From contig CAVQNN010000003.1 in the NCBI GenBank assembly GCA_963714175.1, positions 520,201-584,200 of the forward strand: a DNA stretch of 64,000 nt. The letters run 5' to 3'. Source of the DNA: an uncultured Actinomycetes bacterium. GTDB taxonomy: Bacteria; Actinomycetota; Thermoleophilia; RBG-16-64-13. Below are positions 3,473 through 23,410 of the stretch, one piece after another (positions within the stretch are counted from its first letter, which is position 1; the number at the start of each line of letters is the position of its first letter). The notes beneath the pieces are model-generated. The model worked only from the letters and a program-made list of their open reading frames with translations. It searched no databases and was not told the DNA's origin. The translations under genes were made by a program, and so were the position numbers.

Positions 3473-3501
3473 GCATTTCCGAACAGGAGGGAGAAGAAGT
3501 C

Positions 3502-3961
3502 TTGCACAAGCTGGAGAACTCACCGTACAAGAAGTACTTCAAGGTCGGTGACGAGATCAAGATCCCGTCTCATCCGCACGAGCACGAGGTGCCGTACCCG
3601 GCGATCTTACCTCGTTGGCACGGACGTGCCGGCGACTTCTGGCTTCAGGATCGCGACGTTCGCCATCACCGAGCCATTTGAGATGGTCCCGCACACTCAC
3701 ACCCACGACTTCGACCAGTACCTCTCCTTCTACGGCGGTGCGCCCGACATGTTGGATCTCGGCGGCGAAGTGGAATTCACACTCGGAGAGGAAGGGGGAG
3801 AGCTGGAGACCTACGTCTTCACGAAGCCCTTCATGGTTCACGTACCGCCGGGCGTGTTCCACTGCCCGCTGCGCTACACCAAGGTCTACGACCCCGCGAA
3901 GCCGATGATCCACCAGGATCTCGTTTTCACGGGTGAGTACATCCGGAAACCGGCCAGCTGA
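3502..3961 (+). CDS. Small cupin-domain protein, same paralog family (copy C2); apparent +1 frameshift near nt 3597
   Basis: RBS AGGAGGGA then TTG 3502. N-terminal LHKLENSPYKKYFKVGDEIKIPSHPHEHEVPYPAI is in frame 1. The remainder, YLVGTDVPATSGFRIATFAITEPFEMVPHTHTHDFDQYLSFYGG...VHVPPGVFHCPLRY, is in frame 2 (ORF 3548-3961). The N-terminus aligns to paralog 8448-8933 (KYDQYVHHPPH). Confidence 0.6.
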
Positions 3962-7406: not shown

Positions 7407-8432
7407 CTACCGACCGCCGGGATATAGCTTGATGCCCTCACCCATGGGCGACGACATCATGAAGAACAACTGCTTGCTGATGTTCCTGACGATCATCGGG
7501 CCTTGCGACACGTTCGGCGGAACGTATGCCCAGAAGGGCTTGTTGATAACGTGCTTCTCGCCGCCGATCCAGAGTTCCACCTCCGCGCGGAGGTCGGTGA
7601 TGTCGTCGTAGTTCAACGACGTGATCGCGATGGAGGTGCCGTAGGGCACGGTGTGGGTGTCCATGATCAGTTGGCCGGCTTTGGATGTGTCGCCGGGAAG
7701 AAGCCATCTCGTGTCGCAGCCGAACTCGGCGTCGGGGATCACGGTCTGGTCGATGTAGGCCATCGGACGACAGTAGGTGGGATCGAGGGGACGCATGAAG
7801 TCGGGCATCTTGATGTCGGCCGGCGTCCCGTAGACCATGTATCTCGCGTACTTCGATTCGCCGGGCTTCACTTCCCTGGCGATCGGGGGGGCTTTCTCCT
7901 CTGCCTCGGCCTTCTTGGTCTCGTCGTCCTTCTCTCTCGTGTAGACGCCGCCGGGGCCGGAGACCCAGTGCAGCGTCGGCCGGGAGTAGATCTGGCTGCG
8001 CACGCCTCTGTTGAACACAGGCATGTGGGGCAGGTTGGCGGGGATGTACGCCACCCAACTCGACTCCAGAGGGATTATCTCGTCGTCCATCTGCATGGCC
8101 ATGGGGTCTGTGTCTGCGAAATCTTCGGGATTTGTCCCCCACCAAGAGAGCAGCTCGGGAAAGCCATGAACATGGGGGAACATGCCTGGAGTCGCGTAGC
8201 CGATCTTCGCCAACTCCTCCCACGTCACCTGATTGGGGAAGGTGGAGGGCCATATCCAGGTGGTCTCCCCGTAGTAGGCACCGGGGATGACCTCCTCGTC
8301 GATCCAGTGCAGGTGCTCCATGCTGACGCGCTTGCCTTGGGCGGCCAGAAGGTCGCGCTGCTCCGGGGTCGGGCCAGGCAGTAGATGCCGCTTCTCGAGC
8401 GTGGTGCAGATGTACTTGTCGAATTCGCCCAT
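7407..8432 (-). CDS. Tandem-double cupin protein of the same uncharacterised paralog family (copies C3+C4 fused)
   Basis: 341 aa with two cupin units. Unit 1 is PHVHGFPELLSWWGTNPEDF...AYIPANLPHMPVFN. Unit 2 is DTHTVPYGTS...LRAEVELWIGGEKHVINKPFWAYVPPNVSQGPMIV. RBS AGGAGC. Confidence 0.7.
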   Translation of the reverse strand: MGEFDKYICTTLEKRHLLPGPTPEQRDLLAAQGKRVSMEHLHWIDEEVIPGAYYGETTWIWPSTFPNQVTWEELAKIGYATPGMFPHVHGFPELLSWWGTNPEDFADTDPMAMQMDDEIIPLESSWVAYIPANLPHMPVFNRGVRSQIYSRPTLHWVSGPGGVYTREKDDETKKAEAEEKAPPIAREVKPGESKYARYMVYGTPADIKMPDFMRPLDPTYCRPMAYIDQTVIPDAEFGCDTRWLLPGDTSKAGQLIMDTHTVPYGTSIAITSLNYDDITDLRAEVELWIGGEKHVINKPFWAYVPPNVSQGPMIVRNISKQLFFMMSSPMGEGIKLYPGGR

Positions 8433-8447
8433 GGTCGGTGCGTGCTC

Positions 8448-8933
8448 CTATCCCTTGTAGGGGATGATCTCGAAGTTCATGATCTTGTGCGGGTCGAAGC
8501 CCTTGTCTTCCTCGAAATAGGCTTCCCGCGTACCTTCCGCTCCGGCCATCATTATCTCCACCTGGATGATGGGGCTGTCGACGCGAGTGACCTCCAGCGG
8601 ACCGTGGGGCAGCTCCGGCGGCAGATAGACGAGCGTCGGGCGGGTGAAGACGTACTTCTCCAACTCCGGCCCCATGTGCAGCACCACTTCCGCGCCGAAC
8701 TCATCCGGGTCGTCAGGGTTGCCGCCATACCACGCCAGCACTTCGTGGAAGTTGTGGGTGTGGCATGGGTTGTCTCCCTTGAAGGGCTTGCGGACGAACT
8801 GATGACCCATCATGAAGGGGAAGCCGATCTGCTGGTGCGAGATCATCAGACCGTCGAACACAGCGGTGCCGTCCGCCTTCATCGTCAGGAGCATGTGGGG
8901 CGGATGATGCACATACTGGTCGTACTTGCTCAC
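8448..8933 (-). CDS. Small cupin-domain protein, same paralog family (copy C5)
   Basis: GTG start preceded by AAGAGG (MSKYDQYVHHPPH...). Motifs CHTHNFHEVLAWYGGNPDDP and VYLPPELPHGPLEV. The longer ORF (to 9047) overlaps the upstream SDR and is judged spurious. Confidence 0.65.
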   Translation of the reverse strand: MSKYDQYVHHPPHMLLTMKADGTAVFDGLMISHQQIGFPFMMGHQFVRKPFKGDNPCHTHNFHEVLAWYGGNPDDPDEFGAEVVLHMGPELEKYVFTRPTLVYLPPELPHGPLEVTRVDSPIIQVEIMMAGAEGTREAYFEEDKGFDPHKIMNFEIIPYKG

Positions 8934-8988
8934 GTCTACCTCTTTCGGAGTGCTGCCTGGTTGCCTGCCGCGGGTTCGCGGAGGGCAA

Positions 8989-9786
8989 CTACAATACCGA
9001 ACCGCCGGACACATGGAAGACCTGCCCGGTGACGTAACTGGTGACATCGGACGCTAGGAAGAGGGTGGCGTTGGCGATATCCCTCGCCGTGCCCATCCTG
9101 CCCAGCGGGAATGCCCCGAGAAACGCCTTGTTCCTCTCCAGTGCTTCTTCCGGCGACAACTCGGGTTCTCCCTCGTGGAGGATGGCCCCGAACTTGGTGG
9201 GCGCCGGACCGGGAGCGACGCAGTTGACGCGGAGGCCGGCCGGTCCCTCAACCTTGGCAAGTTGCTTCGTGAACAGATCGAGCGCGTACTTGGACATGGC
9301 GTAGGTGCCGACGCCCATGGCGTACTGATGCGTGCTACCAGAGCCGATGTTCACGATGACCCCGTACTTCTGCGCGCGCATCAAGGGGACGACGGCCTGA
9401 GTGACGTTCATGGTGCCGATGACGTTCAGCTTGAACTGCTTCTCCCAGGCGACAGGGTCCTGATCCTCGATCGGGATCCCATCCTTGTGGAGGATGGCAC
9501 CGGCGACGTTGCAGAGGATGTCGATCCGTCCGTACTCGTCAATCACCTTGCGTACCATCGCCTTGACGGCGGCGTTGTCGGTGATATCGGCCTGCACGGC
9601 GAAGCTCTTGCAGCCCAGCTTCTTCACTGCTTCAGCCGTCTTCTCGGTATCCTCCAGGATGATGTCGGTGACAGCCACCGCATCAATCCCTTCCTGGGCC
9701 AAGAGCAAAGCTATCTCTTTGCCGAACCCTACTTGGCTGCCGGCCCCGGTGACGAGTGCCGTCTTTCCTGCAAAGGCGAGATCCAT
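8989..9786 (-). CDS. Short-chain dehydrogenase/reductase (SDR) family oxidoreductase
   Basis: TGAGSQVGFG Rossmann motif, NVAG, and YAMSK catalytic Tyr-x3-Lys. 265 aa. Confidence 0.85.
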   Translation of the reverse strand: MDLAFAGKTALVTGAGSQVGFGKEIALLLAQEGIDAVAVTDIILEDTEKTAEAVKKLGCKSFAVQADITDNAAVKAMVRKVIDEYGRIDILCNVAGAILHKDGIPIEDQDPVAWEKQFKLNVIGTMNVTQAVVPLMRAQKYGVIVNIGSGSTHQYAMGVGTYAMSKYALDLFTKQLAKVEGPAGLRVNCVAPGPAPTKFGAILHEGEPELSPEEALERNKAFLGAFPLGRMGTARDIANATLFLASDVTSYVTGQVFHVSGGSVL

Positions 9787-9811
9787 GGTTACCTTCCAAT
9801 CAAAGTAGTAG

Positions 9812-11659
9812 CTATGCGCAGATCACTTCGGCTATGTCATCCAGGCCCAATTCAAGGAGCTTGGTCTTGCTCGGCATGCCGGTTGCTTTGTCCCAATCCA
9901 TCAGATCCATGTACTCGTCGTAGATCTCTGCGTGCGTGAAGGTGATGCCGGCACGCGGACCCTGGGTCTTGGCGGGGATGCCCCGTAGCCGTTCAGGATA
10001 CTTGAAGGGTGTGACTATGCCTTCTCGCTGGTTGAACGCTTGCCGTACGTTGGTGATGCGCTCACCGGTCTTGAGTATTTCTTCCGTGGTCAGGTCGTCC
10101 CAGCCCGTGATCGCCTTCATGGCCTCGACCAACTGATCGACGTGCGGATATGACCCGATGACGAATTGGCACAGGCCCAACGCGCTGGCGGCGTGCAAGT
10201 AGTTCGTGCTGGTCTTGTGATAGAGCCCGCGACCGGCGCGAGCGGCGCGATCGACCTCATCGATGAGACCCGGTGGGTGCTGCCCGCCCCCTTGATTGTG
10301 GCGGCCAGGTGTGGGGTCCGCTCCGTACCCGGTGGCGAAGCCCCAGCTTCCCCTTGGGTCGTGGGCCCCGATCTCCTGCCCTCCGACGTGCATCGCGTAC
10401 TTTTCGGAGCCCTTGCCGACCCTCTCCGCGGCCAGCTTCACCCCGTCAGCAAGGATGTCGCCGAACCCCTCGCGCTTGCCGATCATCTCGGTCATGGCAA
10501 CGATGGCCTTGTGATTGCCCCAGGTCATCTCCAGTCCGCCGGTATCTTCCTTGCCGATGATTCCATTCTCGTAGCATTCGATCGCGAAGGCGACACAACC
10601 TCCGGCGGATATGGTGTCCACACCCAGTCGGTTGCAGATGTCGGAGGCGACGATGATCGAATCGAGGTTGCCGTTCGCGCAGTTGCTGCCGAACATCGCC
10701 AGCGTCTCGTACTCGGGCTTGTGGGCGCCCTCCTCGAACTCGTATTCCCCGGTCCCCGCCTTCATGATGCCGCCGCACGCAATGGGGCAGCGCCAGCAAC
10801 CATACCGGCGCTTCTGCTTGGCAAACACAGGTGGGCCACCGCAGTCCTCGTAGTTCGGCACATCTATCGCGGCGACACCGCCCCAATTCTTGGACGGCGC
10901 ATCGTCGCTGTTGCAGCACATGCCATAGATGCCGGGCGTGCCGAACTCGTGCAGCCCTTCCTTGTGGCCACCGAGGGCGTCGACGTGCCTTTTGTGCATC
11001 GCCTTGAGCGCTGCCGGTTCGGAGGCCCCGGGAGGCTGCAGGGTGCCCTGGACGGCAACGGCCTTGAGCCTCTTCGAGCCCATGACCGCGCCCAGTCCCG
11101 AGCGCGCGGCAGCGCGGCCCTTGTTGCACATCACCGAAGAAATGAGGGCCAGCTTCTCTCCGCCGGGGCCGATGCAGGCCACTTGAAGGTCCTTGCCATG
11201 CTCCTGCCTGAGGATGTCCTGGGTCTCGAAGGTATCCTTGCCCCAGACGCCGGCAGCGTCTCTCAGTTCGGCCTTGCCGTTGTTGATATGCAGGTACACC
11301 GGCGTGTCCGATATACCGGTGAAGAACACCGCATCGTAGCCGGCGAACTTCAGGTAGGGCCCGAACTCCCCGCCCGAGTTGGCGTCTCCCCAGCCGCCCG
11401 TCAGCGGCGACTTGCCGACGACGACATACCGCGAGCCCCCGACACCCTCGGTGCCGGTCAGGATCCCGGTGACGAAGCCGAGTGTGGCCTCAGGGCCGAG
11501 CGGATCGACGCCCGGCTTCTGACGGTCGAAGAGGATCCTCGCGCCCAGGCCGTAGCCCCCGAGGTACTCCCGAGCCGTCTTCTCATCCAGGGGCTCTTCT
11601 CTCATCTCTTTTGTGGATAGATCCACCCAGAGGATCTTTCCCATCACACCAAAACCCAC
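9812..11659 (-). CDS. aor: Tungsten-containing aldehyde:ferredoxin oxidoreductase (AOR family)
   Basis: 615 aa. N-terminus MGKILWVDLSTKE is typical of AOR. Conserved GLGARILFD and Cys-rich CWRCPIACGG [4Fe-4S] region. Full-length AOR domain architecture. Confidence 0.9.
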   Translation of the reverse strand: MGFGVMGKILWVDLSTKEMREEPLDEKTAREYLGGYGLGARILFDRQKPGVDPLGPEATLGFVTGILTGTEGVGGSRYVVVGKSPLTGGWGDANSGGEFGPYLKFAGYDAVFFTGISDTPVYLHINNGKAELRDAAGVWGKDTFETQDILRQEHGKDLQVACIGPGGEKLALISSVMCNKGRAAARSGLGAVMGSKRLKAVAVQGTLQPPGASEPAALKAMHKRHVDALGGHKEGLHEFGTPGIYGMCCNSDDAPSKNWGGVAAIDVPNYEDCGGPPVFAKQKRRYGCWRCPIACGGIMKAGTGEYEFEEGAHKPEYETLAMFGSNCANGNLDSIIVASDICNRLGVDTISAGGCVAFAIECYENGIIGKEDTGGLEMTWGNHKAIVAMTEMIGKREGFGDILADGVKLAAERVGKGSEKYAMHVGGQEIGAHDPRGSWGFATGYGADPTPGRHNQGGGQHPPGLIDEVDRAARAGRGLYHKTSTNYLHAASALGLCQFVIGSYPHVDQLVEAMKAITGWDDLTTEEILKTGERITNVRQAFNQREGIVTPFKYPERLRGIPAKTQGPRAGITFTHAEIYDEYMDLMDWDKATGMPSKTKLLELGLDDIAEVICA

Positions 11660-11700
11660 GTTGCTCCTCCTGCCTAAGATACGTATTGCCGACTAGTTCC

Positions 11701-13020
11701 TCACTTGGCCCCGGAGATGCCCGGCAGCCAAGTAGCCAATTCCGGAATGAAGAAAATCAGCACCAGAAGGATCAGGCCCCACGCAAGGTAGGGCATGGAC
11801 GCCTTGAAGCAGTCGCTGAGAGTCACGTCTGGAGGAGCGAGCGCCTTCATGGTGTACACATCGAGCCCGAAGGGCGGGCTGATCAGCCCGAGTTGCACGC
11901 TCAGCAGGCACAGCGTGGCGAACCACAGCATGTCGAACCCCAGCACCTTGATCATGGGGAAGAAGATCGGCGCCGTGATCATGACGATGCTGGCCGGGTC
12001 CATGAAGGCCCCCAGGATCAGGAGGACGACCTGGGTGAAGGCGACGATGACCAGGGGGGGTACGTCGAGGCCGGTCGCCCACTCTGTCAGGCCCGTGACG
12101 GCGCCCGAGGTGGCAAGGAGGCGTCCGAAGCTTATGGAGCCCACCACGATGAAGAAGACCATCACCGAGATGCGCACGGTGCTGCGGCAGGCTCGGAAGA
12201 CCATCCTCCAGCTGAACTGCTTGTACAGCGCCGCCACAAGGACGCACGCGACGACGCCGAGCGCAGCACTTTCACTTGGGGTAGCGAGCCCAAAGAAGAT
12301 GCTGCCCATGACGGCGAGAAGGATCAGGCCGATTGGGACCAGGTAGAGCCACGTGGCCTTCAGCTTCTCGCGAAGGGGTATCTTGACCACATCGTAGGAC
12401 GGAGCCAACGTCGGATCCATCTTGCAGCGGACGACGATGTAGCCGGCCATCAACACAGCCAGCAGGATGCCGGGGAGGGTGATGGCCAACAACAGCTTCG
12501 AGATGGACACCTGGCCCATGGCCCCAATGAACACCGCCATCGCGCTGGGAGGGATGAGGATGGCCAGCGTGCCGGTGGAGATGATCGGGCCCAGGGTCAT
12601 CTCGTTCTTGTAGCCCCGCGCCATCATCTCGGGGAGGAGAACCCGCCCTAGGATGCCGATGCATCCACCGCTGATACCTATCGGCGCGCCCAGAAGCACG
12701 CCTACCCCGATCGCCACTAGGCTGAGTCGGCCGGGCACCTTGCCCATTACCTTGTCGACGGCGTCGACAACCATGGTGCCCGTTCCCGCCTCGAAGATGA
12801 CGTCACCCATCAGGATGAAAAGCGGGATAGGCAGAAAGACGTAGTTGGCCACCGAGCTGTACAAGCTCATGGCGAGCTGATCGATCCCGCTCCAGCCCCC
12901 CCAGAACACCGAGGCGCCGATGATGCAGGTGAACAGCATCCCGAAACAGATGGGCATGCCCGTGATCATGATGACCACAAGGCAGCCGAACATCAATACC
13001 AAGGCCTCAAACCACTCCAC
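11701..13020 (-). CDS. dctM: TRAP transporter large permease subunit (DctM family)
   Basis: 439 aa polytopic membrane protein with DctM-characteristic segments (GMPICFGML, LFILMGDVIFEAG, ISPPFGLDVY). Confidence 0.9.
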   Translation of the reverse strand: MEWFEALVLMFGCLVVIMITGMPICFGMLFTCIIGASVFWGGWSGIDQLAMSLYSSVANYVFLPIPLFILMGDVIFEAGTGTMVVDAVDKVMGKVPGRLSLVAIGVGVLLGAPIGISGGCIGILGRVLLPEMMARGYKNEMTLGPIISTGTLAILIPPSAMAVFIGAMGQVSISKLLLAITLPGILLAVLMAGYIVVRCKMDPTLAPSYDVVKIPLREKLKATWLYLVPIGLILLAVMGSIFFGLATPSESAALGVVACVLVAALYKQFSWRMVFRACRSTVRISVMVFFIVVGSISFGRLLATSGAVTGLTEWATGLDVPPLVIVAFTQVVLLILGAFMDPASIVMITAPIFFPMIKVLGFDMLWFATLCLLSVQLGLISPPFGLDVYTMKALAPPDVTLSDCFKASMPYLAWGLILLVLIFFIPELATWLPGISGAK

Positions 13021-13032
13021 AGGTGCTCCTCC

Positions 13033-13587
13033 CTATAGCGAGCTTTGTTCTCCGGCCTTGATGTACACACCGGACTTGTACGCCCGGTAGTAGGTCACCA
13101 CGTGCCTGATTGACTGTATGAAGAGAGCGAAGAATGCGATGGGGATGATCATCTCGATCGGCCACTTGACCGGCTTCAGAATGGTGGCCAGGACGAAGTG
13201 GTTCTGGTAGTCCTGAATCGTCAGCCGTGCCGTGTAGAACAACAAGAAGGCTATCAGCCCCGCTACGGCGCAGGTGGAGATGAGATTGATGATGTTTGCG
13301 GCTTTGGCCGGGAACCTTTCCACGACGGCCTCCATCACCACGTGTCCCCGGTCCCGATAGATGGCCGTGGTGCCGAGGAAGGTCATCCAGAGGATGGAAA
13401 AGGAGAGGATCTCGAAAGAAGGCGCCCATGTGAAGTTGAACGCCTTTCGGATGATGACGTCCTGGGTGATCCAGATGGTCTGGATGAAGACGATGACGCC
13501 GGCGAGTAGCAGCATGAAATCGATGGACTTGTCGAATACTCGCCCTGCCTTGTCCAATAGCCGCATGACCACGCCTCTCCCCGTCAA
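13033..13587 (-). CDS. dctQ: TRAP transporter small permease subunit (DctQ family)
   Basis: 184 aa with four TM helices, located between the dctP and dctM genes. Confidence 0.8.
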   Translation of the reverse strand: MTGRGVVMRLLDKAGRVFDKSIDFMLLLAGVIVFIQTIWITQDVIIRKAFNFTWAPSFEILSFSILWMTFLGTTAIYRDRGHVVMEAVVERFPAKAANIINLISTCAVAGLIAFLLFYTARLTIQDYQNHFVLATILKPVKWPIEMIIPIAFFALFIQSIRHVVTYYRAYKSGVYIKAGEQSSL

Positions 13588-13662
13588 TGTGTTGTTTACC
13601 AGGCACGGGGCGGCCGGTACACCGGCCGCCCCGTGCCTGCAGATGTGCTTGCGATCTAGTCT

Positions 13663-14826
13663 CTAGTTGTTAGCCCGCGGGAAGTTGGGGTTAACGAGCG
13701 CGTCATAGAGGAGCTTCCCTTCTGTCGGGAACGCCTCCAGGTCGGCCTTCCACATCGTGTTGCGGTACGCCGTGTAGAAGACCTTTGATTCCTCGGGGCT
13801 GAGATTGACGATCTTCACGCCGTCGGCCTCGATGGTGGCTTTGACGCTGTCGACCGTTTCGTTGAAGTGCGTCAGGTTGTCAAACTCGGTGGCGATCATG
13901 GCCTGGGTGAGCACCTGCTGCTGCTTCGGGGTCAGGCTGTTCCACTTGTCCATGTTCATGAGCATCATGCCGCCGCAAGAACTGACCGGCTCGTCGAGCA
14001 TGGCCTTGGTCAGCGGCGTGAGGCCGTAGTCAATGATGCCGGGGATGCCGACGTTGAACCCGTCGACCACGCCGCGCTCCATGGAGGTGAAGTAGTCGCT
14101 GAAGTCGATAGGCATGCAGGTCATGCCGAGCTCTTCGATGAACGCCTGGTTGGCGCCGCCGACAGCGGCCATCTTCAGGCCCTTGAGGTCGGCCAGCGTG
14201 CTGATCTCCTTGCCGAAGTAGAAGACCGTCTGGACCTGAGCCTCTGAGGAGACAGACGCGCCGAGGTACTTGATGCCCTTCGCCGCGAAGCCGTCTTCAA
14301 AGTACTTGAAGGCGGGGTTGCCGGCACGCAGTTCTACCGGGTTGTATTCCGCCCGGCCGATCGCGCTGCAGAGGGGAACGAGGGAATCGCCAAACATGGC
14401 CAGAGCGCTTCCTATGTCAAAGGTGCCGCGCTGGACGGCGGCAGGCACATCCGCGGGCGGGCAGGCTTCCGGTCCGTTGAACTTGATGGTCATCGCGCCG
14501 CCGGAGTACTCCGCGACCTTGTCCATGAAGTCGTGGTTCCAGTCAGAGCCCGGCGGAACGTCCGGGAGGAAGCTCACGAACGTGAGCTCTATGGGCTCCA
14601 CGTCAGCGACCACGTCGCGAACGACGTCGCCCGCTGCCACGGTGGTCTCAGTCGGCGCCGCGGTGGTCTCGGTGGGTGCAGCAGCGGTGGTCGTGGTCTC
14701 GGGTGCCGCGGTGGTCGTGGTCTCGGGTGCCGCGGTGGTGGTGGTCTCTTCTTCCCCGCCGCATCCGACGGCCAGGACGGACAGTGCCAAGATCAGACAT
14801 ATACCAATAATCGCCAGTTTCTTCAC
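13663..14826 (-). CDS. dctP: TRAP transporter substrate-binding lipoprotein (DctP family) with Thr/Ala/Pro/Glu-rich linker
   Basis: GTG start after GGGGGAA. Lipobox LAVGCGG. Linker TTTTAAPETTTTAAPETTTTAAAPTETT. DctP-fold body (KFNGPEA...AKGIKYLGA). The 5' extension of the ORF to 14910 is judged spurious. Confidence 0.85.
   Translation of the reverse strand: MKKLAIIGICLILALSVLAVGCGGEEETTTTAAPETTTTAAPETTTTAAAPTETTAAPTETTVAAGDVVRDVVADVEPIELTFVSFLPDVPPGSDWNHDFMDKVAEYSGGAMTIKFNGPEACPPADVPAAVQRGTFDIGSALAMFGDSLVPLCSAIGRAEYNPVELRAGNPAFKYFEDGFAAKGIKYLGASVSSEAQVQTVFYFGKEISTLADLKGLKMAAVGGANQAFIEELGMTCMPIDFSDYFTSMERGVVDGFNVGIPGIIDYGLTPLTKAMLDEPVSSCGGMMLMNMDKWNSLTPKQQQVLTQAMIATEFDNLTHFNETVDSVKATIEADGVKIVNLSPEESKVFYTAYRNTMWKADLEAFPTEGKLLYDALVNPNFPRANN
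14640..14760 (-). repeat. Tandem ~24-nt repeats encoding the TTTTAAPE linker of DctP
   Basis: Plus-strand text gcggtggtcgtggtctcgggtgcc repeated; in-frame coding repeat. Confidence 0.6.
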
Positions 14827-15135
14827 GAGTGTTCCCCCGATCCTATTCTTCGCCTGGATTTCACAGCATTGCTCGTATCTTGTCAGGGTCGAATCAGAAT
14901 TCGCTACCAAGACCTCCTTCCTGCATGTGGCATGCCGCCATACTAGCAGCGAGTCCTCCTATTTGGTCAACGGTTTGGTCGGTCGCGGCCGCCGGATAGT
15001 GCGAGCTGAAAGATGGGGCGGACCGTCGCGAAGGCGATCACTCGCGAGAGCCCATCATGTTACCGAGATCGCCGAATCCCATCATGTCCCCTCCAAGAAT
15101 AGCGAGTCCTACTAGTGAGCACTACTAGCACACGC

Positions 15136-15175
15136 TACTAGCAAACGCAAGTTCTGTGTGCTTTCCTAGGAGACG
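15136..15175. promoter_or_regulatory. Three direct copies of CTACTAG with 13-bp spacing in the dctP/tetR divergent promoter region (candidate TetR operator array)
   Basis: cCTACTAGtgag / cACTACTAGcac / cgCTACTAGcaa at 15139, 15152 and 15165. The same motif recurs downstream of tetR. Confidence 0.5.
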
Positions 15176-15247
15176 GTAGACGAGAGGTCGAGCCTCAAAT
15201 GGCCCCCATCCCCAGGTGCTGGGAGAGGCCGATCGGAGTAGACAGCT

Positions 15248-15886
15248 ATGGGAGCCCCTACGAAGGAAGGTACCCGCGAACCGCTCTCCACTCGCTGGAA
15301 GCGGATGAGCGTGGAGGAGAAGCGGCAGCGGATCGTGGATGCCGTCCTCCTTCTCATCTCAAAGCACGGAGTACAAGGTACGACCACCGCGCGGATTGCC
15401 GCGGCCGTAGGAGTATCCGAGCCGACCATCTATCGGACTTTTCGCAACAGAAAAGGGATGCTTCTTGCCGCTGCCGACAAGCTCTGGCAGCAAAGACGAG
15501 ACGAACTCGAGTCCTTCGAGTCGTCGGATGCGATGGACCACCTCCGGAAGATCTGTGAATACCACACCACGGGCATTCAACAGACACGGGTCGTCCGCTT
15601 CATCACCGAACTCGCCGTCGCCCCTCCCACCGATGGACTGCGTGAACACTTGAGAGACCAACAACTCAGTGAGGCTCGACGGCTCGCCGACTTGGTAGAC
15701 GAAGGGAAGGCGCAGGGTTGTATCCGTCCGGACGTCGATTCCGAGGAGACCGCTTGGCGGATCATGTCCGTGCACTGGACTGAGGCAATGGCTCGCCTGC
15801 ATGGTCTGGAAGACGTGGTGATGACGGGCTTCTCCACGAAGGTATTCCAGTCTATTCTGACAGACATCGCCACGAAGTCGCCCTAG
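15248..15886 (+). CDS. TetR/AcrR family transcriptional regulator
   Basis: N-terminal HTH ARIAAAVGVSEPTIYRTFRNRKGML with a TetR-like C-terminal ligand-binding domain. RBS GGAGTAG. An alternative start at M20 (15305) is possible. Confidence 0.85.
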   Translation: MGAPTKEGTREPLSTRWKRMSVEEKRQRIVDAVLLLISKHGVQGTTTARIAAAVGVSEPTIYRTFRNRKGMLLAAADKLWQQRRDELESFESSDAMDHLRKICEYHTTGIQQTRVVRFITELAVAPPTDGLREHLRDQQLSEARRLADLVDEGKAQGCIRPDVDSEETAWRIMSVHWTEAMARLHGLEDVVMTGFSTKVFQSILTDIATKSP

Positions 15887-15945
15887 ACCAATCGCGACGG
15901 TCCCGAACGCACCGGAAGGGCCCTTGGCACTGGCAAGCGACCGCT

Positions 15946-16013
15946 CCCTCATGGATAGTAGTGGCTTTACTTTGAGCCCCGCGGGGCTTAGAGTAGTGGA
16001 CACTACTAGCGTA
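15946..16013. promoter_or_regulatory. Operator-like cluster upstream of the UroD operon: perfect palindrome AGTAGTG-GA-CACTACT plus further CACTACTAG / TAGTAGTGG copies
   Basis: 15947-15955 TAGTAGTGG, 15981-15999 gAGTAGTGgaCACTACTag (inverted repeat), 16004-16012 CACTACTAG. A GC-rich hairpin AGCCCCGCGGGGCT at 15966-15979 sits between them. Confidence 0.55.
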
Positions 16014-16140
16014 CACTACTAGGTGTCGACCATCTTCAGATTGTCGACTGGTTGGCGTATCGTGGCGCTCCCGGGCATGGGTGTGGGCCCGGGCATCGGA
16101 TGTACGGTCTTCGACGAAGGCAGAACGAGAAGGAGCACAG

Positions 16141-17403
16141 ACAATGTCCGAGGAGTCCAAGACGCCGGAGATCCTGGGCGCGGAGAGAGCGCGGCGCATC
16201 CAGGACGCGATCGAACTGAAGCAGCCGGACAGGGTCCCCTTGTCGATGTCGATCGGCTACATGCTGGCCGACATGGGCGGCATCAGCAAGCAGGAACTGC
16301 TGGAGAACCCGGAGAAGGCTCAGGAGTTGCTGGAGAAGGCCGCCCTGGACTTCCAGCCGGATAGCATCCACGGTCCCATGCCCTCGGATCCGACACCGCA
16401 CCTCATTCTCGGCGACCGCATGACCGCCTGGCCCGGCCATGGCGTGGATGCGAGCACTCAGTATCAGTTCGTCGAGAGCGAGTTCATGAAGGCGGACGAG
16501 TACGACGCGTTTCTGGACGATCCGACGGACTGGGTGATCCGCACCTACCTCCCCCGCGCTTTCGCAGGCCTGGAGGCCTTCAGCCTCATGCCCCCTCTCA
16601 ACCAGTTCATCTCCGGCAGCTACTTTCTGAGCGCCCTGGGCGGGCTCGCCTCGGGGCCGATGGCCGATGCCTTCAGGACTTTCGCCCAGGCTCTCCAAGC
16701 CGTGGCCGACCAGAACGAGCTGATGATGAAGAACATGCGCCGGATGGCCGCCCTTGGCTTTCCCGCTTCGGTCATAGGCGGAGCCACGCTCACGGCGCCG
16801 TTCGACATGATGTCCGACGCCCTGCGGGGCATGCGCGGCATCCTATTGGATATCCGCAGGCAGCCTGAGAAGTTGCTCGCGGCCCAGGAAAAGATCGCGC
16901 GCTACGAGTTGGAGCATGCCATCAACACCTGCAAGGCCATGGGTGTGTACAAGGCCTTCCTCCCGCTGCATCGCGGTTCCGACGGGTTCATGTCAATCGA
17001 GCAGTTCGAGACCTTCTACTGGCCTCAGTTGAAAAGCATACTCGAGACGCTGGTCGAGAACGGCATCACCCCGATCGTGTTCTACGAGGGCTGTTGGGAC
17101 AAGCGCCTGGAGCATCTCGCTCAACTCCCCAAGGGCAAGACCGTGGGCTACTTCCAGTCGAGCGACATCTTCAAGGTGAAGGAGGTCGTCGGCGACACCA
17201 TGTGCATCATGGGGGGCATGCCCAACTCGCTGCTCGCGGCCGGCCCGGCCGAAGAAGTCCGTGCTCTCACAAAGAAGCTGTGCGAGAAGGTGGGCAAGAA
17301 CGGCGGGTTCATCATGTCCACGGCCGTGGGCGAGATGGCCGGCAGCAACCCGGAGATGGTCCGGGTTTGGGCCGAAGCCACCAGGGAGTTCGGGACATAC
17401 TGA
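16141..17403 (+). CDS. Uroporphyrinogen decarboxylase (URO-D) family protein (MtaA/CmuA-like methyltransferase fold; function unknown)
   Basis: 420 aa from M at 16141 (RBS AGGAGC). Family-typical segments: ...FQPD..., C-terminal FIMSTAVGEMAGSNPEMVRVW. No cobalamin-binding partner is seen in the window. Confidence 0.8.
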   Translation, partial: TMSEESKTPEILGAERARRIQDAIELKQPDRVPLSMSIGYMLADMGGISKQELLENPEKAQELLEKAALDFQPDSIHGPMPSDPTPHLILGDRMTAWPGHGVDASTQYQFVESEFMKADEYDAFLDDPTDWVIRTYLPRAFAGLEAFSLMPPLNQFISGSYFLSALGGLASGPMADAFRTFAQALQAVADQNELMMKNMRRMAALGFPASVIGGATLTAPFDMMSDALRGMRGILLDIRRQPEKLLAAQEKIARYELEHAINTCKAMGVYKAFLPLHRGSDGFMSIEQFETFYWPQLKSILETLVENGITPIVFYEGCWDKRLEHLAQLPKGKTVGYFQSSDIFKVKEVVGDTMCIMGGMPNSLLAAGPAEEVRALTKKLCEKVGKNGGFIMSTAVGEMAGSNPEMVRVWAEATREFGTY

Positions 17404-17433
17404 GCGGTTACTGAGACTAGGAGGAGCATCGCC

Positions 17434-17850
17434 ATGGGAATCTACGACAAATGGTTCGCGACGAACCCCATCCTGCCGGGTAAGAACTGTGACCGGCTGG
17501 TCTACCAGGCAGCCGAGCATGTGGGTGAGAAGAACTACTCGGTGCTCTGGCACTGCATCACCGAGCCCTTCCTCATGGTGCGCGACCCCCACAGCCACGA
17601 TTTCGACCAGTTCCTGCACTTCTTCAACGCCGATTCCATGCATGTGGGTGAGTTCCACGCCGAATTGGAGTTCACGTTGGGCGCGGAACTGGAGAAGCAC
17701 ATCATCACGGAGCCGACCGTCATCCATATCCCTGCCGGCGTGCTCCACGGCCCCCTTGAGTTCACCAGGGTCGACAAGCCCGTGATCTTCATGAACGTGG
17801 CCTTCACTCCCCAGTACATGAAGCCGGGTGAATCGCACCCACAGCCCTGA
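17434..17850 (+). CDS. Small cupin-domain protein, same paralog family (copy C6)
   Basis: 138 aa. RBS AGGAGGAGC. Motifs PHSHDFDQFLHFFNADSMH and IHIPAGVLHGPLEF. Confidence 0.7.
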   Translation: MGIYDKWFATNPILPGKNCDRLVYQAAEHVGEKNYSVLWHCITEPFLMVRDPHSHDFDQFLHFFNADSMHVGEFHAELEFTLGAELEKHIITEPTVIHIPAGVLHGPLEFTRVDKPVIFMNVAFTPQYMKPGESHPQP

Positions 17851-17865
17851 CATCGAGGAGGCACA

Positions 17866-18603
17866 ATGGATCTGAAACTACGGGACAAGATCGCGCTGGT
17901 GACTGGGAGCGGCAGTGCGATCGGCTACGGTAGGGCGATAGCTCTCCAGTTGGCCGAGGAAGGCTGCGACGTCGTCTGCGCGGACATCGACCTACCCGGG
18001 GCGGAAGAGACTGCGGCGCTGGCCGAGAAGCTCGGCCGCCGGGCCCTCGCGGTGAAGATGGACGTGACCGACCGCGCCGAGGTGGACGCCATGGTCAAGA
18101 AGGCCGTGGAGCAGTTCGGCCGGATAGACATCCTGGTGAACAACGCGGGTCGGAGCAGCGCCGACAAGCCCTTCATGATGAAGACCAAGGCCGACTGGGA
18201 CCTGGACATAGGCATCAATCTGTACGGGCAGATGAACGTGGCGCAGGCCGTCCTGCCCTATATGGCCGAGCAGAAGTACGGCCGGATCATCAACACCTCG
18301 GGCGGGCAGGGCATCCCGACGGTGTCCACCTATGGCGCGGCCAAGGCCGGGGTGGAGGCCTTCACCCATTCGCTCGCGCTCGAAGTCGGGCCCCTGGGCA
18401 TCGTCGTGAACGGTGTCGCGCCTGGTCTGGGCGAGACGGGGCTGAACGTCACCACCACCGACGAGCACAAGGAGGGGTTCCGGCGCATGTCGGCGTTGCA
18501 CAGGCTCTGCACTCCTCAAGACGTGGCGCCGGCGGTGGCTTTCCTGGCCTCCGACGTGTGCAGCTACATGGTCGGCCAGTGGATCAGACTCACCACCTTC
18601 TAG
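17866..18603 (+). CDS. SDR family oxidoreductase (FabG-like)
   Basis: TGSGSAIGYG motif, NNAG, and YGAAKAG catalytic motif. 245 aa. Confidence 0.85.
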   Translation: MDLKLRDKIALVTGSGSAIGYGRAIALQLAEEGCDVVCADIDLPGAEETAALAEKLGRRALAVKMDVTDRAEVDAMVKKAVEQFGRIDILVNNAGRSSADKPFMMKTKADWDLDIGINLYGQMNVAQAVLPYMAEQKYGRIINTSGGQGIPTVSTYGAAKAGVEAFTHSLALEVGPLGIVVNGVAPGLGETGLNVTTTDEHKEGFRRMSALHRLCTPQDVAPAVAFLASDVCSYMVGQWIRLTTF

Positions 18604-18616
18604 AGGAGCAAGAAAC

Positions 18617-18838
18617 ATGGCTATTCGCAACTTCGACGAGGACAAGTGCATCGGGTGCGGCAACTGCGTGGCCGCCTGCCCGATGGACGTCCTGCGAATG
18701 AACGAGGACGAGACCAAAGCGGTAGTGCAGTACCCGCAAGATTGCATAGCCTGCTGGGGATGTGAATCGTTCTGCCCCGAAGGTTGTTTTGACATCTCAC
18801 CAGAACGCGCCCGCGGCGAACTGGTCTCACCGTACTAG
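18617..18838 (+). CDS. 2x[4Fe-4S] ferredoxin
   Basis: 73 aa with CIGCGNCVAACP and CIACWGCESFCP motifs. Confidence 0.85.
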   Translation: MAIRNFDEDKCIGCGNCVAACPMDVLRMNEDETKAVVQYPQDCIACWGCESFCPEGCFDISPERARGELVSPY

Positions 18839-18840
18839 GA

Positions 18841-20544
18841 GTGGAAGGTATGAAAGAGTCGGGTCCGGAGCGAACGGTATTGACCACCGACGTGCTCGTG
18901 CTCGGTGCCGGGGGCGCGGGTATGTGTGCCGCGCTCAAGGCCAGGGAGAGTGGCGCGGACGTCCTCATGGTCGACAAGTGCGGCATCGGCTACAGCGGTC
19001 AGGTGCCCATCGGCGGGGGGATACTGGCCTACGTCTATCCTTCCTACGCCGACACCTGGGCCGAGAAGGTCACCAAGGACAGCAACTACTTCAACAACCA
19101 GGACTGGACCTACGCCTTCGGCAAGGCGATGCATCCGACGACCATGGATCTGGCCGACCTGGGGCTCACCTTCCTGAGGAAGGACGGGGAGATCGAAGTC
19201 CTTACCTGGGGACCGAACATCCACGTCACGCTCTTCGATGCGCCCAAGTCCCTGGAGGCTCTGAGGAGGACTGCGAAGGCCCGCGGGGTCAGGATGATGG
19301 ACAAGATATTCGTCATCGACCTGCTGAAGAACGGCGACCAGGTGGTGGGTGCCGTCGGCCTGGGGCTCGTCGACGGACGTGTCTACGAGTTCAATGCCAA
19401 GGCGACCATCGTCGCCACGGGGAACTGCGGATACCAGCACGAGAAGACCTATTCCTCCGTGCAGGGCGAGGGCCCCGCGATGGGCTACCGAGCCGGCGCG
19501 CAGATCACCAACGCCGAGTTCAACAGCATGTACGTCTGGGGCATCAAGCTCCTCGGCAAAGAGCTCATGGGCATTCATTTCTACCTGTACCTGGAGAACG
19601 CCCGCGGCGAGAAGATCATGGGCAAGCACTTCCCGGAACTGATGGTGGGCGAGCACGCGGTCTTGACCTTCGACCCCAGAGTCATCACTGCCATGTACAA
19701 GGAGGTCAAGGCCGGCCTGGGCCCGATCTACCTGAACCTGAACGGCCTGACATCGACTGAGATAGCCGGCCTGTGCGAGGAATTCGTCGAAGACCTGTCT
19801 CATATCATGGCGAACGACACGATGATGCTCCTCTGCGAGAAAGCCGGCGTCGACCCCTCCACAGAGAAGATGGAGATGTGGCCGAGGCTTCTCTACACAG
19901 GCGGCGGCCTCCGGATAGACATGAACTGCAAGACGACTGTGCCGGGCCTCTGGGCGGCCGGTGGCGCGTGCAGCAATCAGTGGACCAATGGGGGCGGCAG
20001 TCAGGCGGGTCTGGGAGTCCAGTCGGCCGCGGTGACCGGGTTCGCCGCCGGAGAGGACGCTGCGAAGTACGCGGTCGGCGCCTCGAGGTGCGATATCGAC
20101 CCCGACTATGCCGAGAAGGTAATCTCCAGGGTGCTGGCTCCGATGGAGCGCTCAGGCGAAGTCGATGCCTACGACATAACGTACAAGGTCCACGAGGCCA
20201 TCGTGCCGATGGAGTACAACCGCGTCCGCGAAGCCGCGAGGATGAACGAGGCGATGGGCATCCTGAAGGACGCCAAGGAAAGACTACAGCTGGTCGGTGC
20301 GGCCGACTTCCATGACCTTGCTCGCTACCACTCCGCGGAGAGCATGCTCATGTGCGCGGAGTTCACCTACAGGGCGGCTCTCATGCGCGAAGAGAGCCGC
20401 AGCCAGCACTTCCGCGAGGACTTTCCTGCTCGCGACGACAAGAACTGGTTCAAATGGATCAACGTCGAGCAACGGGACGGCGGCCCGGAGCTCTCCACCA
20501 TGCCCATCCCCATAAGCGACTACCGCCTACAACCCAACCCGTGA
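18841..20544 (+). CDS. FAD-dependent oxidoreductase of the fumarate-reductase/succinate-dehydrogenase/AprA flavoprotein superfamily
   Basis: N-terminal dinucleotide fold DVLVLGAGGAGMCAALKARESGADVLMVDK. 567 aa. Immediately follows the ferredoxin (ATG 4 nt after its stop), suggesting a Fd-flavoprotein pair. Confidence 0.8.
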   Translation: MEGMKESGPERTVLTTDVLVLGAGGAGMCAALKARESGADVLMVDKCGIGYSGQVPIGGGILAYVYPSYADTWAEKVTKDSNYFNNQDWTYAFGKAMHPTTMDLADLGLTFLRKDGEIEVLTWGPNIHVTLFDAPKSLEALRRTAKARGVRMMDKIFVIDLLKNGDQVVGAVGLGLVDGRVYEFNAKATIVATGNCGYQHEKTYSSVQGEGPAMGYRAGAQITNAEFNSMYVWGIKLLGKELMGIHFYLYLENARGEKIMGKHFPELMVGEHAVLTFDPRVITAMYKEVKAGLGPIYLNLNGLTSTEIAGLCEEFVEDLSHIMANDTMMLLCEKAGVDPSTEKMEMWPRLLYTGGGLRIDMNCKTTVPGLWAAGGACSNQWTNGGGSQAGLGVQSAAVTGFAAGEDAAKYAVGASRCDIDPDYAEKVISRVLAPMERSGEVDAYDITYKVHEAIVPMEYNRVREAARMNEAMGILKDAKERLQLVGAADFHDLARYHSAESMLMCAEFTYRAALMREESRSQHFREDFPARDDKNWFKWINVEQRDGGPELSTMPIPISDYRLQPNP

Positions 20545-20608
20545 TAGAGGCAAAACGGGGGAATACGAGCAAACGGACCGAGACTGAGGAGGAGGCAAGG
20601 AAGATACG

Positions 20609-22075
20609 ATGATCGCAAAAGAAAAGCTGGCAAAGATAGTTGGGGGTGCGAACGTCAGCGAGGATGCGGGGACGCTGGACGCGTACTCAAAGGACATGAG
20701 TTTTGTCAACCAGACCAGGCCGGCGTGCGTGGTGAAGCCACACAACGCTGACGAGGTGAAGCAACTGGTCGGACTCGCCAATGAGACCCTCACACCTCTG
20801 GTGCCGGTGAGTTCGGGCCCGCCTCATTTCCGGGGCGACACGGTACCGAGCACCGGTGGATCTGTGGTCGTGGATCTCAGCGGCATGAACAAGATCGTCT
20901 TCGTAGACCGGCCTCGCCGGGTCGCCATGGTCGAGCCTGGCGTTACGTTCGGCGAGCTGATCGAGGCCGCGACGAAGGAGGGAGTCAGGCTCAACATGCC
21001 GCTGCTCCCAAGGAGCACCAAGAGCGTCGTAGGCAGCCTCCTCGACAGAGAGCCTGTGGTGATGCCCAAGTATCAGTGGGACATCTCCGACCCCATCGCC
21101 TGCCTCGAGGTGATCTTCGGTGCTGGTGAGGATTTCCGGACAGGCCAAGCTGCCGGCCCGGGGACCGTCGAAGAGCAGTGGGCCGTGGGAGGCGTGCAGA
21201 AGGCGCCCTACGGACCTCATGTGGCCACCTGGCATCGGCTCGTCCAGGGAGCTCAGGGGACCATGGGCATCGTGACTTGGGCCTCCCTGCGCTGTGAGTT
21301 GCTTCCCAGCCTTGAGGAGCCCTACGTGGTGGGTTCCGCTCAGCTCGCACCGCTTCAGGAGATGGCCGCTTGGCTCATCCGCCTGAGGATGGTCAACGAG
21401 TGCTTCGTGCTCTCCAGCGCCAGTCTGGCGGCCATGTTCGCCGAACAATGGCCCACGGACTACAAGCGCCTCAAAGCCGCACTGCCGCCGTGGACTCTCT
21501 TCTATACAGTAGCCGGCTACGACTACTACCCGGAGGAAAGGGTCAGTTCCTACCTCAGCGACATCACCGACCTCACCAAGCGCCTGGGCGTTGAGCCGAC
21601 CAGGTCGGTCGGCGGTCTCTCCGCCCGCGAGATACTGAAGGCAGTCCAGCATCCCTGCTCGGAGCCCTACTGGAAGCTTCGTGCCAGAGGAGGCTGTGAA
21701 GACGTCCTCTTCCTGGCCCCGAACGACAAGGTCGAGGGGCTTGTGGAGATCATGAACGGTCTGGCCGGCAAAGCCGGCTACGCGATCTCCGACATGGGCA
21801 TCTACGTTCAGCCGATGGTGCAGGGGGCCGGTTCCCACTGCGAGTTCAACCTGTTCTACGATCCCGATAGCCCGGGCGACGCCGATCAGGTCAAGAACCT
21901 CGCCTCTCTCGCGACTAAGACTCTCATCGACGCGGGCGCCTTCTTCTCCAGGCCATACGGAGAAAACGCCCTGATGATCATGAATCGCGACGCGGCGACG
22001 GTCGCTGTGCTCAAGAAGTTGAAGCAAGTCTTCGACCCGAACGGGGTCATGAACCCGGGGAAGCTGTGTTTCTAG
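20609..22075 (+). CDS. FAD-linked oxidase (PCMH-type FAD-binding, GlcD-like)
   Basis: 488 aa with FAD_binding_4-like N-terminus (ADEVKQLVGLANETLTPLVPVSSG...VVDLSGMNKI) and FAD-oxidase C-terminal domain (VFDPNGVMNPGKL). Confidence 0.85.
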   Translation: MIAKEKLAKIVGGANVSEDAGTLDAYSKDMSFVNQTRPACVVKPHNADEVKQLVGLANETLTPLVPVSSGPPHFRGDTVPSTGGSVVVDLSGMNKIVFVDRPRRVAMVEPGVTFGELIEAATKEGVRLNMPLLPRSTKSVVGSLLDREPVVMPKYQWDISDPIACLEVIFGAGEDFRTGQAAGPGTVEEQWAVGGVQKAPYGPHVATWHRLVQGAQGTMGIVTWASLRCELLPSLEEPYVVGSAQLAPLQEMAAWLIRLRMVNECFVLSSASLAAMFAEQWPTDYKRLKAALPPWTLFYTVAGYDYYPEERVSSYLSDITDLTKRLGVEPTRSVGGLSAREILKAVQHPCSEPYWKLRARGGCEDVLFLAPNDKVEGLVEIMNGLAGKAGYAISDMGIYVQPMVQGAGSHCEFNLFYDPDSPGDADQVKNLASLATKTLIDAGAFFSRPYGENALMIMNRDAATVAVLKKLKQVFDPNGVMNPGKLCF

Positions 22076-22126
22076 CGGCGTAGTGACCGTTAGAGACAAA
22101 GCTGTGCAATAGAAGGAAGGAGCGAA

Positions 22127-23392
22127 ATGGCATTAGAAGAGTATTCCGGCGATATGAACATGTGCTGCCGGTGTTCGATGTGCAAGTTTGTGCCTTTGCA
22201 GATGGTCAAGGGTTACGAGCACGCCAACGTGTGCCCCAGCATATCCAGGTACAACTTCCACTTCTACGCGGGTGGCGGTCGGCTCAACATGGGAGCCCAG
22301 GGGCTGGACAAAGGGTTTGAGTACACGCCTCGGTACCTCGACAGTATCTACAACTGCCAGCTGTGCGGCGCTTGTGACGTTTCCTGCAAGTACGGCATGG
22401 ACATGGAAGTGCTCAGGCCTATCCAGGAACTGCGCATCAAGGCAGTCGCGGATGGTCACACCCATCCTGCTCTCGACAAGGTAGTGGAGAGGATGCGCAA
22501 GCAGGGCACCATGGTGCCCGGACCGGGCAAGCGGGGCGCGTGGGCTGAAGGACTGGGACTGAAGGACGCCACCAAGGAGAAAGTGGACGTTCTCTACCAC
22601 GTGGGTTGCTTGACCAGCTACGACAAGGAAATGCAGGGTGTCGCCAAGGCTACCGCCTCGATACTCACCAAGGCCGGCGTCAATTTCGGTATCGCCGGCG
22701 ACGCCGAGACCTGCTGCGGCGGCCGGGCCTACGAGATGGGCTACGAGGACGACTTCTTGGCGCAGGCTAAGAAGAGCATGGAAGTCATCGAGCGCTCCGG
22801 CGCGAAGACACTCGTGACCAGTTGTGCCACCTGCTATCAGTGCTATGCCGTCCTCTACGAGCGCTTCGGTCTCAAGGGCGATCTGAAAGTGGTGCACAGC
22901 AGCCAGATGATCGCCGATCTCATCGGCAGCGGCAAGCTCGAGCCGAAGAACCCGGTCGACCTGAATGTCACCTACCACGACCCCTGCCACCTCGGCAGGC
23001 TCGGGGAACCCTGGATCCATTGGAAGGGCAAGAAGGTCCCCGGCGACCGCTTCATCTTCGACCCGCCCAAGACCTACCGGCGCGGGACGAACGGCGTGTA
23101 CGAACCTCCACGCGAGGTGCTTGCCAGCCTTCCCGGCGTGACTCTCACCGAGATGGACCGGATCAAGGAGTACGCGTGGTGTAGCGGCTCCTGCGGTGGA
23201 GTGACCGATTCCAATCCCGAGTTCGCCGAATGGACGGCCAACGAGAGGATCGAGGAAGCCGTGTGCACCGGCGCCGAGGCGATCGTGACGGCCTCTCCCT
23301 GGAGCGAGAAGCTCTTCTCCGAGACCATCAAGAAGAACGGTGGCAGCCTGAAGGTGTATGACATCGTCGAACTGGTTGCCCAAGCCATATAG
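22127..23392 (+). CDS. (Fe-S)-binding oxidoreductase with ferredoxin-like and two CCG domains (GlcF/GlpC/HdrD-like)
   Basis: Cys clusters CCRCSMCKFVP and CQLCGACDVSC, then CCG-type motifs (CCGG...YHDPCHLGR; CSGSCGG). Confidence 0.85.
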   Translation: MALEEYSGDMNMCCRCSMCKFVPLQMVKGYEHANVCPSISRYNFHFYAGGGRLNMGAQGLDKGFEYTPRYLDSIYNCQLCGACDVSCKYGMDMEVLRPIQELRIKAVADGHTHPALDKVVERMRKQGTMVPGPGKRGAWAEGLGLKDATKEKVDVLYHVGCLTSYDKEMQGVAKATASILTKAGVNFGIAGDAETCCGGRAYEMGYEDDFLAQAKKSMEVIERSGAKTLVTSCATCYQCYAVLYERFGLKGDLKVVHSSQMIADLIGSGKLEPKNPVDLNVTYHDPCHLGRLGEPWIHWKGKKVPGDRFIFDPPKTYRRGTNGVYEPPREVLASLPGVTLTEMDRIKEYAWCSGSCGGVTDSNPEFAEWTANERIEEAVCTGAEAIVTASPWSEKLFSETIKKNGGSLKVYDIVELVAQAI

Positions 23393-23410
23393 GAAGGAGG
23401 GCGGTACGTC

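Follow-up and report, generated by a model that had tools for sequence, protein, structure and literature searches.

Overlapping palindromes on both sides of a tetR gene in an uncultured Thermoleophilia bacterium as candidate operators of a multi-operon regulon

The tetR gene and its neighboring operons

The DNA analyzed here, referred to as the window, is a 64-kb stretch of contig CAVQNN010000003.1 (assembly GCA_963714175.1) from an uncultured Actinomycetes bacterium, RBG-16-64-13 (Thermoleophilia). It carries a gene for a TetR-type regulator between two long operons:

7407–14826, minus strand: leftward operon with dctP (13663–14826), dctQ, dctM, an aldehyde:ferredoxin oxidoreductase (AOR), an SDR and two proteins without a family match; order conserved
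15248–15886, plus strand: tetR, a TetR/AcrR-family regulator of 212 aa (PF00440, E 1.2e-11)
16144–24901, plus strand: rightward operon with a URO-D-like gene (16144–17403), an unknown protein of 138 aa, an SDR, a FAD_binding_2 flavoprotein (fumarate-reductase-like), a FAD_binding_4 oxidase, an Fe-S protein and a second FAD oxidase; order conserved

The TetR protein has an N-terminal helix-turn-helix (HTH) of the TetR_N type at residues 29–75 (PF00440, 44.6 bits against a cut-off of 24), and its C-terminal match to TetR_C_13 (24.2 bits) falls under the cut-off of 27. Its nearest solved relative is FadR of Bacillus halodurans (5gp9, E 2.7e-9), with a match covering FadR residues 25–166, and the NCBIfam FadR model scores 42.8 bits against a cut-off of 200. 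Other matches to TetR proteins in the PDB, with E about 1e-7, are confined to the HTH region. No equivalog-level name was found in NCBIfam for TetR or its neighbors, all equivalogs scoring far under their cut-offs. The protein is a TetR-family member without a close characterized relative. In its clade the recognition helix reads TIYRTF, versus TLYKYF, ALYRHF or TLYSHF in distant homologues. Neither a second TetR of the same clade nor etf genes were found within the 64-kb window.

Among solved structures, the URO-D-like protein comes closest to CdmB of Acetobacterium (9rui, E 1e-33), a corrinoid-dependent chloromethane methyltransferase (PMC13222342). No corrinoid-protein gene adjoining the URO-D-like gene was noticed in the window. 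A family of small proteins of 138, 199 and 341 aa, the last with two repeats of the domain, lacks a Pfam or NCBIfam match (28–40% mutual identity); the genes fall at 3110–3946, 7407–9047 and 17434–17850, that is, in both operons and at 3.1–3.9 kb. A literature search on this combination of genes returned nothing relevant.

Structure and conservation of the palindromic arrays

The heptamer CTACTAG occurs five times in the window versus 1.5 expected, a count reached in 1 of 100 shuffles. Upstream of tetR, copies at 15109, 15122 and 15135 follow an exact 13-bp step, and two further copies downstream, at 16003 and 16016, are again 13 bp apart. The window contains four-fold fewer CTAG tetranucleotides than expected (54 versus 217), which makes these clusters more striking. 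The earlier note had described the upstream copies as three direct repeats with 13-bp phasing. Their number and spacing hold, but they are not merely direct repeats, as they belong to overlapping palindromes (ACTAGTG-AG-CACTACT at 15111–15126, one mismatch). The start that it had assigned to the feature, 15136, excludes the first two upstream copies, and the actual extent is approximately 15096–15154 together with 15955–16022. Its perfect inverted repeat before the URO-D operon, AGTAGTG-GA-CACTACT, is present at 15992–16007, as are the further downstream copies that it had mentioned (CACTACTAG at 16001 and 16014, ATAGTAGTG at 15955–15963). The elements are as follows:

15096–15154, no strand: predicted upstream operator array of four 20-bp units with a 13-bp step, namely U0 at 15096 (12.8 bits, weak), U1 at 15109 (33.2 bits), U2 at 15122 (25.3 bits) and U3 at 15135 (8.6 bits, weak); the block is conserved in orthologues
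15109–15128, no strand: U1, the main upstream palindrome, CTACTAGTG-AG-CACTACTAG, which matches the pattern of the genome scan
15955–15963, no strand: isolated half-site ATAGTAGTG, just upstream of a putative −35; not conserved in orthologues
15975–15988, plus strand: GC palindrome AGCCCCGCGGGGCT, in the spacer of the putative URO-D promoter; folding energy −18 kcal/mol here
15990–16022, no strand: predicted downstream operator array, with D1 at 15990–16009 (27.1 bits, holding the perfect inverted repeat) and D2 at 16003–16022 (30.3 bits)

Alignment of orthologous sites identifies the unit as a 20-bp dyad, CTAsTAGyG-nn-CrCTAsTAG, and each array consists of 2 to 4 such palindromes that overlap. 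The 7-bp CTAsTAG is a small palindrome by itself and is common to neighboring dyads; the 13-bp step arises because adjacent dyads share it. The most informative bases of the dyad are the TA.TAG positions, 4–8 bp from the center, which places the half-sites ~11–13 bp apart. Such a distance is usual for TetR-type dimers.

The bit scores given above were obtained with a 20-bp matrix, symmetric and based on 32 orthologous sites. After the four strong sites (U1, U2, D1 and D2), the next scores in the window are those of U0 and U3, where the upstream array decays at its edges. No other position of the 64 kb exceeds 7.1 bits, and the best value obtained in 50 shuffles was 14.4 bits. Together with the restriction of CTACTAG to the two arrays, this bears out the earlier statement that the motif is seen nowhere else in the window. 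The GC hairpin said to accompany the motif does exist as a palindrome, AGCCCCGCGGGGCT, but it is specific to this genome and lies outside the conserved element. As a conserved terminator or other element it was rejected, being variable or absent in orthologues and followed by no terminator-type T run.

A protein search with TetR gave 182 homologues, and those carrying a source name were assigned to Actinobacteria bacterium RBG_16_64_13 and Thermoleophilia. When an alignment of the TetR homologues was used to scan metagenomes, 80 loci were obtained, and the orthologue set comprises 27 loci (214 kb; TetR identity 62–92%), nine of them from genomes. The long orthologous loci, with TetR identities of 62–79%, share the gene order AOR, dctM, dctQ and dctP running leftward and tetR, URO-D, the 138-aa protein, SDR and flavoprotein running rightward. 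The 20-bp dyad is found at tetR in all 27 loci, and every one of the 105 matrix matches of at least 15 bits in these 214 kb falls within 300 bp of a tetR end. Phased palindromes occur upstream of tetR and again 40–145 bp past its stop codon in essentially all long orthologous loci. Within the arrays the majority-base frequency is 0.79–0.83, versus 0.39–0.51 in the flanking intergenic DNA, and the position of the arrays relative to tetR is fixed across loci whose TetR proteins are only 62–80% identical. Conversely, no match above 12 bits was found in any of 59 loci of distant TetR homologues (identity of 47% or less), and the simple palindromes upstream of those homologues yielded no common motif. 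The arrays track the whole gene cluster rather than tetR alone.

Where sequence is available on both sides of tetR, arrays are found on both sides except in two loci. In L017 (4699–4713), a gap of 14 nt separates tetR from the URO-D-like gene, and there is an upstream array but none downstream. The rearranged locus L019 (3785–4871) has tetR after an acetyl-CoA synthetase gene and directly before FAD oxidase and Fe-S genes, with a single site over the tetR stop codon and none upstream. Each of these arrangements is compatible with TetR acting on the promoter of these enzymes, wherever that promoter lies. A further variation was seen in L092 (2353–2469), from a Gaiellales metagenome-assembled genome (MAG), where the downstream operator pair between tetR and the URO-D-like gene is expanded to a 28-bp tandem repeat, TGGACGCTAGTAGTGGATGCTACTAGCC, in 4 copies; L018 (4801–4985) has the same 28-bp array in about 6 copies.

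A genome-wide motif count had been proposed in the earlier note, where a high frequency would have refuted its reading. The exact pattern CTASTAGYGNNCRCTASTAG is present in only 23 stretches among 185,579 species-representative genomes (596 Gb), and at so low a frequency the motif is not REP-like. Nine of the 23 stretches lie beside tetR orthologues with conserved gene order. Two more, L100 and L103, are on other contigs of the MAGs that hold L098 and L092, and contain the whole upstream block, GATAGTG...CACTACTAGCAyACGCTAC...CAAATGCAAGC. There the block (L100:2920–2995; L103:1745–1815) lies ~100–175 bp upstream of an etfB-etfA-FAD oxidase operon, with no tetR nearby. This etfBA operon is likely an additional member of the regulon, which probably extends past the two operons described here to etfBA in other genomes. 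The remaining matches are single sites in unrelated genomes, mostly of low GC. A literature search on the motif string returned only noise.

Promoter-like elements around the arrays

Four putative promoter or start-region elements can be placed relative to the arrays:

14940–14970, minus strand: second, dctP-proximal promoter-like element, TTGACC-N19-(TGC)TAGTAT, i.e., TTGACC-N19-TGCTAGTAT; present in about half of the orthologues
15122–15150, minus strand: putative leftward promoter within the upstream array, with −35 TTGCGT (15150–15145), a 17-bp spacer and −10 TAGTAG (15127–15122), preceded by TGC
15157–15169, plus strand: TGTGCTTTCCTAG element, conserved only where tetR follows and absent from L100 and L103
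15966–15994, plus strand: putative URO-D operon promoter, with −35 TTTACT (15966–15971), a 17-bp spacer and −10 TAGAGT (15989–15994)

Downstream of tetR, the orthologues share TTTwCw-N17-TAnAGT, except for the L001–L003 subclade, which has TTGACT beside the palindrome instead. In the orthologues with the shared layout, the dyad begins within the last three bases of the −10, and the left flank of D1 consistently follows TAnAG in place of the operator consensus (CTAs), which argues for a real −10 constraint. Because the dyad starts inside the −10, D1 and D2 would cover the −10 and the expected start, a standard geometry for repression by occlusion.

On the leftward side, the minus strand has TTGCrT-N17-(TGC)TAGTAG. 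The −10 TAGTAG of this element is the same as the operator half-site, so that its promoter and operator roles are inseparable. At the etfBA loci L100 and L103, CTTGCrTTT is retained despite a decayed adjacent half-site, and TGTGCTTAnCTAG is found only where tetR follows, 12–13 nt before the ATG in most orthologues. These two observations point to a leftward promoter, with its −10 and start under U1/U2, and to a tetR-specific promoter or ribosome-binding site immediately to the right of the array. The TGTGCTTTCCTAG element may be a TG-extended, non-canonical −10 or the ribosome-binding region of tetR. No canonical TAnnnT −10 for tetR that is consistent across the orthologues was found in the conserved block; GATAGT at the left edge and a TG-extended TTAnCT before the ATG are candidates, and the assignment of the tetR promoter is uncertain. 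The window differs from most orthologues at 15170–15247, where ~72 extra bases separate the conserved TGTGCTTnCCTAG element from the tetR ATG. In most orthologues the ATG lies within 12–16 nt of TGTGCTTnCCTAG, and some look leaderless.

The tetR-dctP intergenic region is 420 bp long, and the upstream array is ~280 bp from the dctP start. This distance, with the second promoter-like element in between, suggests that control of the transporter is less direct than that of tetR and URO-D. The dctP-proximal element, which has the 8-mer TGCTAGTA in common with the operator half-site, may serve dctP as a promoter independent of TetR, or it may be a solitary half-site. As an additional operator the TGCTAGTAT region was rejected, since its 4.9 bits are under the shuffle noise. 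The dctP leader (14830–14935, minus strand) contains two strongly conserved elements, GGAAGGAGGT (reverse complement of 14913–14921 plus 1 nt), which precedes the GTG start at 14826 by ~85 nt, and GCTGTTGAyTCCAGG, ~40 nt from that start. The leader showed no conserved small ORF, Rfam match or consensus RNA fold. A riboswitch-like fold of this leader was likewise rejected (consensus −2.5 kcal/mol, no covariation), and an Rfam search of 14600–16300 gave no match at E up to 1.

Predicted regulation by TetR and alternative explanations

We propose, with a probability of about 0.8, that the two arrays serve the TetR-family repressor encoded between them as its cognate operators. As judged from sequence comparison, the earlier reading, in which palindromic operators of one type flank tetR and mark a single regulon, is supported by the conservation of the arrays in orthologous loci, their absence at distant homologues, the rarity of the pattern in genomes and the overlap with promoter-like elements. 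Since neighboring palindromes overlap via the common CTAsTAG, several TetR dimers can probably sit side by side on each array. At the downstream array, which starts in the putative TAGAGT −10 of the URO-D-like/SDR/flavoprotein operon, bound TetR would block RNA polymerase. The upstream array, in the divergent control region, overlaps the likely leftward promoter (TTGCGT-N17-TAGTAG, minus strand) toward dctPQM, AOR and beyond; as it ends just before the tetR-specific element by the tetR start, it would also autoregulate tetR. A small molecule, probably the substrate imported by the TRAP transporter or a pathway intermediate, would release TetR and thereby induce all units together. The same promoter-operator block would control the unlinked etfB-etfA-FAD oxidase operon in other genomes. 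The sequences themselves show how the motif is built, that it is conserved, specific to this TetR clade and rare among genomes, and that it overlaps promoter-like sequences. We infer TetR binding, the number of bound dimers, the transcription starts and the ligand, drawing for binding and ligand release on the known behavior of the family.

The palindromes could also be operators of another DNA-binding protein encoded elsewhere, with tetR merely one of the regulated genes. This explanation draws on the same block being present at the unlinked etfBA loci with no tetR nearby, and on an association of the arrays with the whole cluster that is as strong as that with tetR. Nevertheless, we regard it as unlikely, because no regulator gene other than tetR was seen among the cluster genes examined, the arrays flank it on both sides in the orthologues with sequence on both sides (L017 and L019 excepted), and in the rearranged L019 the site stays with tetR. 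Moreover, TetR-family repressors normally have sites at their own genes (PMC3511530). The conserved sequence might instead consist of promoter elements only, with repeated and duplicated TGCTAGTAG-like extended −10 boxes and no repressor site. The half-site does read TGCTAGTAG on the minus strand, like an extended −10, and the dctP-proximal TGCTAGTAT has 8 bases in common with TGCTAGTAG. However, conservation covers both arms of the 20-bp dyad, and the dyad recurs in steps of 13 bp on either side of tetR, whereas a promoter needs neither two-fold symmetry nor 2–4 phased copies, and the downstream array sits past its −10, over the expected start. An arrangement of promoters alone is therefore quite improbable.

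The least probable view is that these repeats belong to a REP-like or mobile family, or arose by local duplication through chance, and play no part in regulation. The 28-bp tandem amplification in one MAG (L092, L018) indicates that the sequence is able to expand, but the absence of any further copy in 64 kb, the 23 stretches found in 596 Gb of genomes and the fixed position relative to tetR across diverged loci largely refute this possibility.

The Tn10 tetR-tetA system has tandem palindromic operators (tetO1, tetO2) over back-to-back promoters, with autoregulation and release by an inducer. The present locus is similar in having the repressor gene beside a divergent transporter gene and tandem palindromes in the common control region, over putative back-to-back promoters; autoregulation and release are proposed here by analogy. 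Unlike in Tn10, a second operator array is located downstream of tetR, before a long operon of enzyme genes. The predicted operators here overlap by 7 bp (13-bp step), whereas those of Tn10 are separate, and the divergent genes encode TRAP uptake where Tn10 has an efflux pump. Tn10 TetR is itself only distantly related, as the HTH-only PDB matches to TetR proteins (E about 1e-7) indicate.

For Streptomyces, a genome-context rule (Ahn, Cuthbertson, Nodwell 2012) predicts a divergent neighbor at less than 200 bp as the target of a TetR-family regulator, and the targets are often enzymes besides membrane proteins (PMC3511530). The present locus is alike in having a divergent neighbor as a predicted target, but its 420-bp intergenic region exceeds the 200-bp limit, and the co-directional downstream operon and the unlinked operon predicted as targets here are outside the rule. 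In layout the sites also recall those of dimer-of-dimers regulators (FadR, QacR-IR1, CprB, CgmR), whose extended operators consist of overlapping or offset pseudo-palindromes with room for more than one dimer. FadR binds its 21-bp site as two dimers (PMC5397183), as does CprB its own site (PMC4150764), so that both are documented cases of several dimers occupying overlapping pseudo-palindromes. In contrast to this group, the arrays described here have up to four units at a regular 13-bp step, and the similarity of the protein to FadR is weak.

A bolder version, which we put forward only tentatively, is that three or four TetR dimers load cooperatively, head to tail, with the phased palindromes as their platform, and silence two back-to-back promoters at once. 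The promoter-operator block would then be a portable module, moved to etfBA and amplified as the 28-bp repeat in the Gaiellales MAG, that marks the regulon of an uncharacterized anaerobic pathway. If so, this pathway would involve TRAP uptake, a URO-D-superfamily enzyme related to corrinoid methyltransferases, a tungsten-type aldehyde oxidoreductase and flavoproteins.

The cross-locus comparison provides a precise operator consensus for an unstudied TetR clade of uncultured Thermoleophilia- and Gaiellales-type Actinomycetota, and it joins ~15 genes of unknown pathway function, plus etfBA elsewhere, in one predicted regulon. The regulon and its operator make the inducer of the pathway experimentally approachable, and TetR with its 20-bp site could serve as a ligand screen or biosensor. 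The understanding of TetR regulation itself is unchanged, as the proposed switch is of an ordinary, well-known bacterial kind.

In two cases, Capsulimonas and Actinophytocola (L088:6153–6185; L102:5476–5510 and 7797–7830), the remaining matches of the genome scan are similar 13-bp phased repeats, CTAGTAGCGCGCA. They lie right after a canonical TTGACA-N17-TATAAT promoter or beside LacI-type regulator genes, with no TetR of this clade nearby, and look like a convergent or unrelated operator.
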